From NCBI GenBank assembly GCA_000004985.1, contig GG739197.1: DNA of 4,128 nucleotides; one strand, 5' to 3'. A program made the translations under genes and the position numbers. Below the pieces are notes generated by a model, which was not told the DNA's origin, searched no databases, and worked only from the letters and a program-made list of their open reading frames with translations. This DNA comes from Naegleria gruberi. Its lineage: Eukaryota. Positions 1,292-4,128 of the stretch are shown one piece after another. Position 1 is the first letter of the stretch; each line of letters opens with the position of its first letter.

Positions 1292-2101
1292 TCAATGTAG
1301 ATTTTCAAGTATCTCAAATAAAATCACTAAATTTGATCTGACTGAGAAATGCGGTATGTGGTTGCCAAATTTTTTGTAATAACTTGGCGGATTTTTCATT
1401 ATCCTTCTTTGGACATAAAATATAGTCTTCATTGAGTTCAAAGTGAGTCTCGTGCTTAACATATGTTCTGCAACTTCATTGATCTTCAACGTCTTGTCTT
1501 TCATACTTATAGCTCCGTTCAGAGATTCTCTAATATATTTTGATTCTTTGTTATTATAGTTGTTTTCCAAATGTGCAACAAGGTTTGTTTTAAATATCTC
1601 AGAACTATAATGAGTGTAAACAACTAAAATATCTTCTGGTTCAACAACTCCCATAATTAAATATCTAAAAGCTCTAGTTTGGGTATAGAACTCTGACTTA
1701 AATTTTGATTTGGCCTTCAGTGCCACACTTCTTTTATGTACAGCTGCAATTTGGACTTTATGGCTATTGTCATATTTAAACTCCCATCTCTTTGATATTT
1801 CATCAGTAGTGGTTCCAATGTATCTTAGAACTTCACCACCGAATCTAACAAAAGCACAGTAAATTATGTCATTACTCTTGTGCATATCAATTGCTTTTGC
1901 AAGTAAATTGAAATCCTTAATAATATTCTTGGGTTCTCGTTTCTCTTTTAACCAAGAAAACAATGGATTTGTAGTGGTGTTCAATTCACCAAGAGATTTG
2001 ATGAGGATGTTCAATTCTGGTTTGTTATCTTGACAATCCTTCGTCACTTTGTCAAAAGCAATTACTTTATCAGGATCCACTAATCTTGTAACTGATCGCA
2101 T
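1292..2101 (-). CDS. GIY-YIG superfamily nuclease-domain protein (T5orf172/MUG113-like core), 269 aa from the first in-frame ATG at 2099-2101. The ORF track extends to 2245 only because codon 1 there is TTG, which is not a eukaryotic start.
   Basis: This is a long uninterrupted minus-strand ORF with a TAA stop at 1292-1294. Track residues 126-230 (nt ~1556-1870) read DIIYCAFVRFGGEVLRYIGTTTDEISKRWEFKYDNSH...EPEDILVVYTHYSSEIFKTNLVAHLENNYN. That gives Tyr of 'IIY', then 12 residues, then 'YIG-T-T', then 'KRW' seven residues later, then an aromatic residue, then a Glu about 60 residues on and an Asn-rich 'ENNYN'. This is the spacing and residue set of the GIY-YIG catalytic core. Compare I-TevI, recalled from memory: GIYQIKNTLNNKVYVGSAKDFEKRWKRH ... 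ERENFWIKELNS..NGYN. The (K/R)-I-G-x-T-x-x-x-x-x-R-x-x-E shape is typical of the T5orf172/MUG113 subfamily that is widespread in fungi. No HMM or BLAST could be run. Confidence 0.5.
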   Translation of the reverse strand: MRSVTRLVDPDKVIAFDKVTKDCQDNKPELNILIKSLGELNTTTNPLFSWLKEKREPKNIIKDFNLLAKAIDMHKSNDIIYCAFVRFGGEVLRYIGTTTDEISKRWEFKYDNSHKVQIAAVHKRSVALKAKSKFKSEFYTQTRAFRYLIMGVVEPEDILVVYTHYSSEIFKTNLVAHLENNYNNKESKYIRESLNGAISMKDKTLKINEVAEHMLSTRLTLNSMKTIFYVQRRIMKNPPSYYKKFGNHIPHFSVRSNLVILFEILENLH

Positions 2102-2511
2102 GTAGTTCCCTCCTTTAATGGGATTCTTCTTGTAATGAATTGAGATGTTCTTCGTCAGATTTGAGAGTGAACTAGTATTGTTTAGAGAAAAAAAATGTCC
2201 CTTCTCCACGCCAAATAGACCAATTGAAGAACACCAACAAAGCAACCGAATATTTGCAAATGGCCAAGGTAAAAACTTTTCTATAGAATTTACATTTAAT
2301 GATGAATATACCCGCTAAATTATTTTGATGATAATTTTAACAATTTTTTCGTCAAATTTTAACGTATCAGATTGCAAAATTATGAAATAAAGTTTATTGA
2401 AAAATGTTAAAAATTGATGCTTAAAGCATAATAAAATCGTCAACAAGTGTTGGGAGAAAAATTCCAAATTAACGCGCAATTGACGTCAAGAATTATCGTC
2501 AATTCTTAATG

Positions 2512-3276: not shown

Positions 3277-3465
3277 TCAACATTCATCATCACTCATATC
3301 ATCAGTGGAATCCTCTTCAATGGTTTCTTCCTCACAAGAGGATGATCCAGAATCATTGTTTTCCTCTCTTTCTTTTCTCTTTTTTGAGGTGGTCTCCTCA
3401 AGTTCTGTCTTCTTCTTCTTCTTTACTGATTCATTTTGTTTTGCACCCTTCTGCAAATTCTGCAT
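3277..3465 (-). CDS. Possible small (62 aa) highly charged Lys/Glu/Ser/Asp-rich protein; it could equally be a low-complexity artefact
   Basis: It has a true ATG at 3463-3465 with caaaaATG context and TGA at 3277-3279. The product is MQNLQKGAKQNESVKKKKKTELEETTSKKRKEREENNDSGSSSCEEETIEEDSTDDMSDDEC, with a basic NLS-like stretch followed by an acidic Ser/Asp tail (CK2-like sites). It fully overlaps a plus-strand Ser-rich ORF (3194-3481) that looks less protein-like. Confidence 0.25.
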   Translation of the reverse strand: MQNLQKGAKQNESVKKKKKTELEETTSKKRKEREENNDSGSSSCEEETIEEDSTDDMSDDEC

Positions 3466-3588: not shown

Positions 3589-4117
3589 GTATCAAGATGT
3601 CTTTGCATAGGGAGACTCTATTGTGCATCAACCAAAGAAAATTCAAAATCTTTGAAACAAACTCGATACTCAATAAGAATACACCCTAAATATGATACAA
3701 TTAATCTTGCACCCTTTAGAGATATAGAGTATTGGAAAAATCACATTCAAAAAGGGAATTTTGATCAAGGGTTGAAATCAATTTCACCAATTTTGGATCA
3801 AGATTGGAATCCATCACCATCAGATATTTGTTGCTATGATTCAATGCATGTATTATATGAAGGAGTTTTCCAAGAAATGATGAAAATGATCCCTATTCAA
3901 TACTGGGAAAGATTTGACATTGTTTCTGAAACAAAAGTATCCATCATTCCTTCACAAGCATCCTAGAAAGACCACAAATGGCCAGATTTTGAACAGTCTA
4001 AAGGCAATTGAAATTTACATGATCTGTCATTATTATTTAGAGCTGTTTACGCATATCGAAGGATTTAAGGAAATAGAATCAAAGGTTGAAATATTCATAG
4101 ATTGCCTCTATAATTGA
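3589..4117 (+). pseudogene. Decayed transposase-like gene, possibly Transposase_21 / Tnp2 (CACTA, EnSpm, KDZ/Plavaka-type) family. It is an internal fragment with no ATG start, at least one frameshift near 3890-3966, and continues past the window end.
   Basis: Frame 1 is open from 3589 with no start codon; the track ORF at 3652 begins on TTG. It reads ...APFRDIEYWKNHIQKGNF...DICCYDSMHVLYEGVFQEMMKMI... Frame 2 is open from 3890 and reads ...SFLHKHPRKTTNGQILNSLKAIEIYMICHYYLELF... up to TGA at 4118. The EYWK ... D-x-M-H-x-x-x-E-G-V-x-x-x-M segment resembles the conserved (E)LPYWK ... LDVMHIEKNV block of Tnp2-family transposases as I recall it. The spacing differs and nothing was searched. Confidence 0.3.
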
Positions 4118-4128
4118 TAAGCTGACAG

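Follow-up and report, generated by a model that had tools for sequence, protein, structure and literature searches.

What kind of protein is encoded by a long, solitary reading frame that lies among ordinary nuclear genes and whose residues recall the active site of the GIY-YIG nucleases? The question is raised by a 4128-bp stretch of DNA (referred to as the window), which is one entire scaffold of Naegleria gruberi, a heterolobosean amoeboflagellate. Its minus strand carries an open reading frame (ORF) of 317 codons that an earlier reading of the letters alone, here called the original prediction, took for a free-standing GIY-YIG nuclease gene of the T5orf172/MUG113 type in a budding-yeast nuclear genome. 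From the analyses described here we conclude that the ORF is a true N. gruberi gene that codes for a protein and is restricted to its lineage. For its conserved core of approximately 110 residues, the identity that we consider most likely, although tentatively and with somewhat less than even confidence, is a highly divergent module of the GIY-YIG fold.

An intact gene with a single distant relative

The stop-free frame that ends at position 1292 is 340 codons long and reaches approximately nucleotide 2311. When the window was shuffled 1000 times, the longest stretch without a stop averaged 85 codons and never exceeded 157, and the second-longest real stretch in the window has 125 codons; the ORF is real and its length is far beyond chance. 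The annotated product of 269 amino acids, which starts at the first ATG, is 100% identical to the N. gruberi 'predicted protein' XP_002668225 (EFC35481, NAEGRDRAFT_54893, UniProt D2W622). This identity contradicts the budding-yeast context that had been assumed and, because the organism is N. gruberi, the argument that the presence of such a gene would be surprising in a yeast nucleus also falls. The gene is already annotated and uncharacterised; a literature search by gene identifiers and sample accessions gave no paper that mentions it. The GC content of the ORF is 0.33 and that of its third codon positions (GC3) is 0.32, while the GC3 of the two neighbouring genes is 0.30-0.32; given that its composition is like that of its neighbours, there is no compositional sign of a recent import.

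Relatives of the encoded protein are extremely scarce. A word-indexed search of 5.8 billion clusters matched the ORF protein to itself alone, and when 1.84 billion representative proteins were scanned in full with HMMER, one relative was retrieved, a protein of 301 amino acids designated P0004 (E 7.6e-17), which shares 41% identity (44/107) with the ORF protein over residues 121-230. No additional members were found using P0004 or the core alignment as queries, in IMG/VR, the JGI metagenomes and the GTDB genomes, or by tblastn against phages; the family consists of two members among the approximately 15 billion proteins searched. Residues 121-230 are the sole part common to both proteins, and the N- and C-terminal flanks cannot be aligned between them. 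The flanks of the ORF protein also had no match in Pfam, PHROGs, NCBIfam or PADLOC, in agreement with the original prediction, for which these regions resembled nothing recognisable. The core that had been delimited there (1556-1870) nearly coincides with the stretch conserved in P0004 (1885-1556), and this overlap lends independent support to the proposed domain boundaries.

The position of the start codon can be considered in the light of this alignment. The core begins with a methionine in both relatives (M121, nucleotides 1883-1885, and M143 of P0004), and a further 72 codons without a stop precede the annotated ATG at 2101; for these reasons the true start, which could be at 2101, in an upstream exon or at 1885, is uncertain. 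The context of the ATG at 2101 is gggaactacATG, whereas that of the neighbouring gene for a low-molecular-weight phosphotyrosine phosphatase (LMW-PTP) is A-rich.

P0004 is encoded on a metagenome contig of 178.7 kb and 43% GC (ERZ12289978 NODE_41) with densely packed, intronless ORFs (approximately 90% coding). Most of these are ORFans without a Pfam match, and the remaining ones encode Ank/BTB, F-box, WD40 or DUF4116 proteins. In the 20.9 kb around P0004 (L003), 12 genes were called, and in 10 of them a run of 5-9 A residues directly precedes the ATG; the upstream sequences that were printed show no Shine-Dalgarno-like motif. Neither this region nor the window is enriched in the early promoter of Mimivirus type, AAAATTGA, whose count in the window was reached in 24/200 shuffles. 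Two proteins encoded near P0004 have no relatives in IMG/VR. Taken as a whole, the contig looks as if it belonged to a giant virus or to a protist with a compact genome. As a separate observation, the ATG of P0004 itself is not preceded by an A-run, and the protein has an N-terminal hydrophobic segment, IVCLVLFAVFVVCLLWTWL.

The conserved core and the GIY-YIG nucleases

The motif residues of the core (numbered according to the 317-codon ORF) follow the order DIIY129-CAFVRFGGEVLR-Y142IG144-TTTDEISK-R153W154, and then S161H162. These letters, along with E216 and N228-232, are located where the original prediction had placed them. When the two relatives are compared, Y129, Y142, G144, R153, W154 and H162 are all invariant, in a core in which just approximately 40% of the columns are so. 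Y129 and Y142 are separated by 13 residues, within the range of about 10-13 for the two tyrosines of the GIY and YIG elements; R153, 11 residues after Y142, occupies the place of the conserved arginine that follows YIG, and it aligns with R27 of the I-TevI-like profiles. The claim that every class of catalytic residue is kept stands for the two tyrosines and the Arg-Trp pair, which are invariant, but not for E216 and N228-232, which are not conserved. As for the I-TevI-type spacing that had been proposed, the Tyr-Tyr and Tyr-Arg distances are close to those of I-TevI (13 versus 11, and 11 versus 10, respectively). For the distal glutamate the candidate is E202, in the acidic block VEPEDI, the most strongly conserved block beyond the N-terminal motif: R153 and E202 are 49 residues apart and R27 and E75 of I-TevI are 48 apart (sequence verified, PDB 1MK0/1LN0). 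Judged from the alignment, no other possible metal-binding glutamate is as well conserved as E202.

Because the divergence of the GIY-YIG superfamily weakens a negative result with curated family models, three subfamily profiles were built: an I-TevI-like profile of 24 domains from public viral contigs, a T5orf172 profile of 8 domains (ICP1 gp5, gp165 and gp174 together with IMG/VR relatives), and a profile of 27 relatives of T4 EndoII from public viral contigs. The query was the two-sequence core of the family (alignment A2, the ORF protein and P0004). With the I-TevI-like HMM, YIG..RW was in register for each of the two proteins (P 0.0043 and 0.07 as single tests). In the profile-profile comparison with hhalign, the core and the I-TevI-like profile aligned in register over 90 columns with a score of 19.5 (P 0.0086), which was reached in 0/150 column shuffles (null mean 11.0, standard deviation 2.2, maximum 18.5). 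As controls, the I-TevI-like and EndoII profiles recognised each other clearly (P 5e-5, probability 67%, 0/80 shuffles), T5orf172 against I-TevI-like gave a score of 16.4 (P 0.025, 5/150 shuffles), and T5orf172 against EndoII gave a P of 0.044 (4/80 shuffles). The power of these tests is low since the profiles are so small. Within that limit, the family behaves about as a true but remote subfamily would towards I-TevI, and about as noise would towards EndoII and T5orf172.

Structure prediction gave models of low confidence. AlphaFold2 reached a predicted local distance difference test (pLDDT) value of 31 with the single sequence and of 42.7 with the two-sequence core, with approximately 50-56 in the motif block. 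The core model includes a strand (7-15), a second strand (18-26), a helix (28-33) and then, after a long part in which little but a short strand (45-49) is defined, a strand (85-91) and a helix (95-111). This beta-beta-alpha ... beta-alpha order is compatible with a GIY-YIG domain that carries an insertion, but the model is unreliable. A Foldseek search with the low-pLDDT model against PDB and BFVD gave no match at E<=0.001.

Several results weigh against the assignment of the core to the GIY-YIG fold. With Pfam, which includes GIY-YIG (PF01541), T5orf172 (PF10544) and MUG113 (PF13455), no family was found at E<=10 for the 317-aa ORF, for both cores or for both 41-aa halves of the motif, and P0004 gave no GIY-YIG match at the same threshold; the NCBIfam, PADLOC and PHROGs scans gave nothing relevant, and sequence and profile searches of the PDB retrieved no GIY-YIG chain. 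Under the refuting criterion set in the original prediction, the lack of a significant match to any curated GIY-YIG model refutes membership at the hmmscan level. The T5orf172/MUG113 assignment made there is not supported, because in addition to the lack of a Pfam match the comparison of the core with the T5orf172 profile gave a P of 0.26 and an out-of-register alignment. The comparison with EndoII, in which the N-terminal half is in register, had a score of 14.1 (P 0.13) that was reached in 19/80 shuffles. The hhalign probability with the I-TevI-like profile was just 4.7%, and over the three subfamily profiles the values ranged from 0.2 to 4.7%. With regard to individual residues, E216 aligns to an isoleucine in P0004, which has no asparagine opposite N228-232, and neither protein has an asparagine 12-15 residues after E202; besides, hhalign sets E75 of I-TevI on Y210, which is not acidic. 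Finally, the statistics based on the motif are partly circular because the ORF was chosen for its motif. The negative result with curated models is in turn weakened by the high divergence of the GIY-YIG superfamily: as a PDB query, I-TevI alone did not find any other GIY-YIG structure, and the Pfam T5orf172 model scores true ICP1 members at 18-26 bits (gp5 21, gp165 18) with a cut-off of 20.

The likeness of the core to known nucleases is partial, and it differs from one group to another. With the I-TevI-type domain (PF01541) it has in common the hydrophobic-Tyr strand, the Tyr-Ile-Gly strand, the Lys-Arg-Trp helix and a weak in-register profile similarity above the shuffle null. In contrast to that domain, it scores below the curated thresholds, has approximately 40 extra residues in the middle, between the arginine helix and the next conserved block, and lacks a conserved asparagine after the glutamate; the ORF protein is a nuclear, eukaryotic protein in which Pfam recognises no DNA-binding module (NUMOD, zinc finger or HTH) and, unlike the genes of homing endonucleases, the ORF appears to lie neither in an intron nor beside a homing target. 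In the comparison with T4 EndoII (DenA; 2WSH), VIY/IIY, VYIGKT/RYIGTT and RKR/KRW are in register, and in both proteins a hydrophobic strand leads into an acidic motif with Glu-Pro. In EndoII this is LEEPLFI, which contains the catalytic Glu118, and hhalign sets it on VEPEDI of the ORF protein; however, the score falls within the shuffle null, and the Asn motif FNPPWN of EndoII has no counterpart in the ORF. The resemblance to T5orf172/MUG113 proteins (ICP1 gp5, gp165 and gp174) is one perceived by eye, hydrophobic-Tyr ... [KRY]-[IVL]-G-x-T ... R, whereas their motif tEQxxH...W..E.F is absent from the ORF. Slx1 and the Penelope-like elements are, as the ORF, nuclear-encoded and eukaryotic with a GIY-YIG-type N-terminal motif, but both are excluded as family assignments. 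The C-terminal RING/PHD zinc finger of Slx1 is missing, as had been anticipated (residues 231-317, the last 87, are free of cysteine and give no Pfam zinc finger), and the window has no reverse transcriptase, either as an ORF or as a Pfam match, and no other long ORF.

The scaffold and its other features

The coordinates of the features of the gene and of the rest of the scaffold are listed in Table 1. Both neighbours of the ORF, the genes for cytochrome b5 and LMW-PTP, are ordinary nuclear genes, and the view of the ORF as a stand-alone and intact gene in a nuclear context next to housekeeping genes is supported. Rfam and tRNA scans of the window gave no match.

Table 1. Position of the ORF, its motifs and the other features of the window (residue numbers refer to the 317-codon ORF)
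Feature	Position	Strand	Observation
ORF, 317 codons from TTG	1292-2245	minus	open reading frame list
Annotated CDS, 269 aa + stop	1292-2101	minus	first ATG at 2101
Conserved core, residues 121-230	1556-1885	minus	sole part common to P0004
GIY-YIG-like N-terminal block D126-W154, DIIY129CAFVRFGGEVLRY142IG144TTTDEISKR153W154	1784-1870	minus	invariant motif residues
Acidic block V201-E202-P-E204-D205-I-x-V-V-Y210 (VEPEDI)	1616-1645	minus	invariant columns versus P0004
Distal stretch E216 to N232 (SSEIFKTNLVAHLENNYNN)	1556-1600	minus	predicted helix, low-confidence model; not conserved
Cytochrome b5 gene	481-795	minus	Pfam Cyt-b5 9.4e-18
LMW-PTP gene, N-terminal part	1-209	minus	Pfam LMWPc 4.5e-16
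62-aa ORF rich in Lys, Glu, Ser and Asp (KKKKKTELEETTSKKRKEREENNDSGSSSCEEE...)	3277-3465	minus	Pfam matches all sub-threshold
Two overlapping ORFs (region 3600-4128)	3652-3966 and 3914-4117	plus	read as one frameshifted gene

N. gruberi has a second scaffold, of 312 kb, with a gene for an identical cytochrome b5 (EFC39339/XP_002672083), and for this reason the 4.1-kb scaffold is probably a haplotig or a duplicate. The cluster of the ORF protein has 1 member on 1 contig, with no second annotated copy, which hints at a presence/absence difference or at a lack of annotation at the other locus.

The left part of the window is found in an environmental Naegleria. A metagenome contig (L001; ENA/Logan run ERR1078381) is 95.5% identical to the window and collinear with positions 109-1364, so that the phosphatase gene, the cytochrome b5 gene and the last 72 nt of the ORF are kept; in these 72 nt there is one conservative change (Ile to Val) and one synonymous change. 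Together with a second contig of the same run (L002), 95% identity to positions 1-1364 and the same gene order are observed, and from these contigs it follows that the environmental sample contains a Naegleria closely related to N. gruberi NEG-M. The cytochrome b5 of the environmental Naegleria belongs to the same 90%-identity protein cluster as that of the window.

An AT-rich stretch of 254 bp (2350-2603), located 100-500 bp upstream of the ORF, has an unusual content of short motifs. All the occurrences of CGTCAA in the window, counted on both strands (8/8), fall in this stretch; the expected count is 0.94, and 8 were reached in 0/200 shuffles. The stretch also includes two TGACGTCA sites and, at 2512-2551, a perfect 40-nt palindrome with the halves ATTTATTATCAATTTTTGAC and GTCAAAAATTGATAATAAAT; the folding of the DNA at 2470-2610 has a z of -5.56. 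It could be a regulatory module with bZIP/CRE-like sites, the end of a repeat element or an origin-like structure.

At the other end of the scaffold, the two overlapping ORFs contain the motif D-S-M-H-x-x-Y-E-G, which resembles Tnp2/KDZ-type transposases. The transposase idea has no Pfam support, since Pfam was empty for each piece and for the joined sequence; the region may be what is left of a repeat or a transposon after decay, in keeping with a small unplaced scaffold. The 62-aa ORF either encodes a short acidic/basic protein or arose by chance in DNA of low complexity.

Identity, possible function and origin of the core

The GIY-YIG assignment has to be weighed against other explanations of the same observations. 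The explanation that comes closest is that the core is a new, very rare domain unrelated to GIY-YIG, with a non-nuclease role (e.g. in binding or regulation) both in Naegleria and in the organism or virus to which P0004 belongs, and that YIG..RW appeared by chance and was noticed because the original prediction looked for motifs of this kind; this is nearly as likely as the GIY-YIG reading, and we give it serious weight while staying short of even confidence. A new domain would account for the absence of a GIY-YIG match in the curated collections and in the PDB, for the low hhalign probabilities and the lack of support from two of the three subfamily profiles, for the fold searches without a significant match (made with low-pLDDT models), for the lack of conservation of the Glu/Asn pair, for the extra residues after the arginine helix and for the minute size of the family. 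It does not account as easily for the fact that 5/5 of the motif residues of the GIY-YIG N-terminal half fall on invariant columns of a moderately conserved core, nor for a similarity to I-TevI-like domains that scored above 150/150 shuffles and above a true-positive control, and the predicted hairpin and helix fit the N-terminal half of a GIY-YIG domain. A related possibility, which cuts across both views and which we consider rather doubtful, is that the core represents an unrecognised and extremely rare family, either a new VEPEDI subfamily of GIY-YIG or a new fold, found, among approximately 15 billion public proteins, only in N. gruberi and in an uncultured giant-virus-like genome; the family would then reflect exchange between a heterolobosean host and its virus or mobile element, and in Naegleria the nuclease may have been domesticated.

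It is improbable, in our estimation, that a foreign gene (from a giant virus or a mobile element) has survived here as a remnant, in decay or domesticated, with its frame still open but its catalytic function lost; the core would then be an inactivated module, GIY-YIG-like or other. The nature of the contig that carries the sole relative, dominated by ORFans and with Ank/BTB, F-box, WD40 and DUF4116 proteins, points in this direction, as do the absence of an annotated homolog in the other proteomes searched, the flanks that are not conserved between the two relatives, the atypical context of the ATG with an open frame upstream of it, the frame-shifted ORF further along the scaffold and a Glu/Asn pair that is not shared with P0004. 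Nevertheless, the ORF is intact over 340 codons, its GC and GC3 match those of its host neighbours, its 3' end is at the same position in the 95%-identical environmental Naegleria, and the viral nature of the P0004 contig is not established. Two other candidates were suggested by searches of the PDB. The profile search gave approximately 20 nanobody (VHH) chains, one of them in an alignment that spans W154 to Y210, which would make the core an immunoglobulin V-like beta sandwich where FRYLIMGVVEPEDILVVY mimics framework 3 of antibodies (YLQMNSLKPEDTAVYYC) with a Cys and a Trp upstream. These matches lack significance (E 0.25-1.1 with single VHH chains, and 0.0039 with a double-VHH chain by summing two domains), they are not independent of one another because the frameworks are nearly identical, Pfam is empty for the core and hence does not report a V-set domain, the second canonical Cys is replaced by Thr or Lys, there is no WGxG/FGxG motif of strand G, and in the model the hairpin is followed by helical segments, as is the C-terminal end formed by one; we rejected this reading as very improbable. 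The resemblance of RYLIMGVVEPEDILVVY (residues 194-210, nucleotides 1616-1660) to framework 3 of VH/VHH domains is judged a chance look-alike. Even harder to credit is the idea that residues 30-101 are a degenerate geminivirus-type Rep (HUH) domain and the gene a relic of a Rep from a single-stranded DNA virus or plasmid. It stems from a phmmer search of the PDB that found just 1l2m_A (chain 'Rep protein', E 0.088, query residues 30-101), the N-terminal domain of the Rep of the geminivirus TYLCV (tomato yellow leaf curl virus). This E-value is not significant, the query has E and N (in PELNILIK) opposite the HUH histidines of PHLHILIQ, the match stops short of the catalytic Tyr motif and lies partly upstream of the annotated ATG, P0004 does not share this region, and Pfam gives no match; this candidate was also rejected.

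What the data show is the ORF, the conservation of its core, the motif residues and the rarity of the gene; its fold, catalytic roles, activity and origin are inferred. If the core does adopt the GIY-YIG fold, its parts may be arranged as follows. A beta hairpin would carry Tyr129 and Tyr142-Ile-Gly, and it would be followed by a helix with Arg153-Trp154 and then by His162. After an insertion of approximately 40 residues that would begin beyond His162, the hydrophobic strand FRYLIMGVV would lead into the invariant acidic block VEPEDI, in which Glu202, at an I-TevI-like distance from the arginine, could act as the metal ligand. The putative active site would then be formed by Y129, Y142, R153 and E202, perhaps with H162. 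If it were active, such an enzyme would cut DNA by the one-metal GIY-YIG mechanism, and the non-conserved N- and C-terminal regions may supply target binding. The gene itself was possibly acquired by the lineage from a virus or a mobile element; that it is foreign or mobile is conceivable in view of the metagenome contig, dense in ORFans, on which its sole relative sits.

Protists commonly have orphan genes, and what remains of interest in this one is the extreme rarity of its domain and a possible link between virus and host. If the GIY-YIG reading fails, this would be another orphan protist gene. If the GIY-YIG reading is true, the gene would represent a new and very small subfamily of a known nuclease fold in a free-living amoeboflagellate, and a candidate trace of gene flow between viruses and their hosts, or from mobile elements, in Heterolobosea; it would then be of modest interest for cataloguing the diversity of nucleases and for understanding the evolution of the Naegleria genome.

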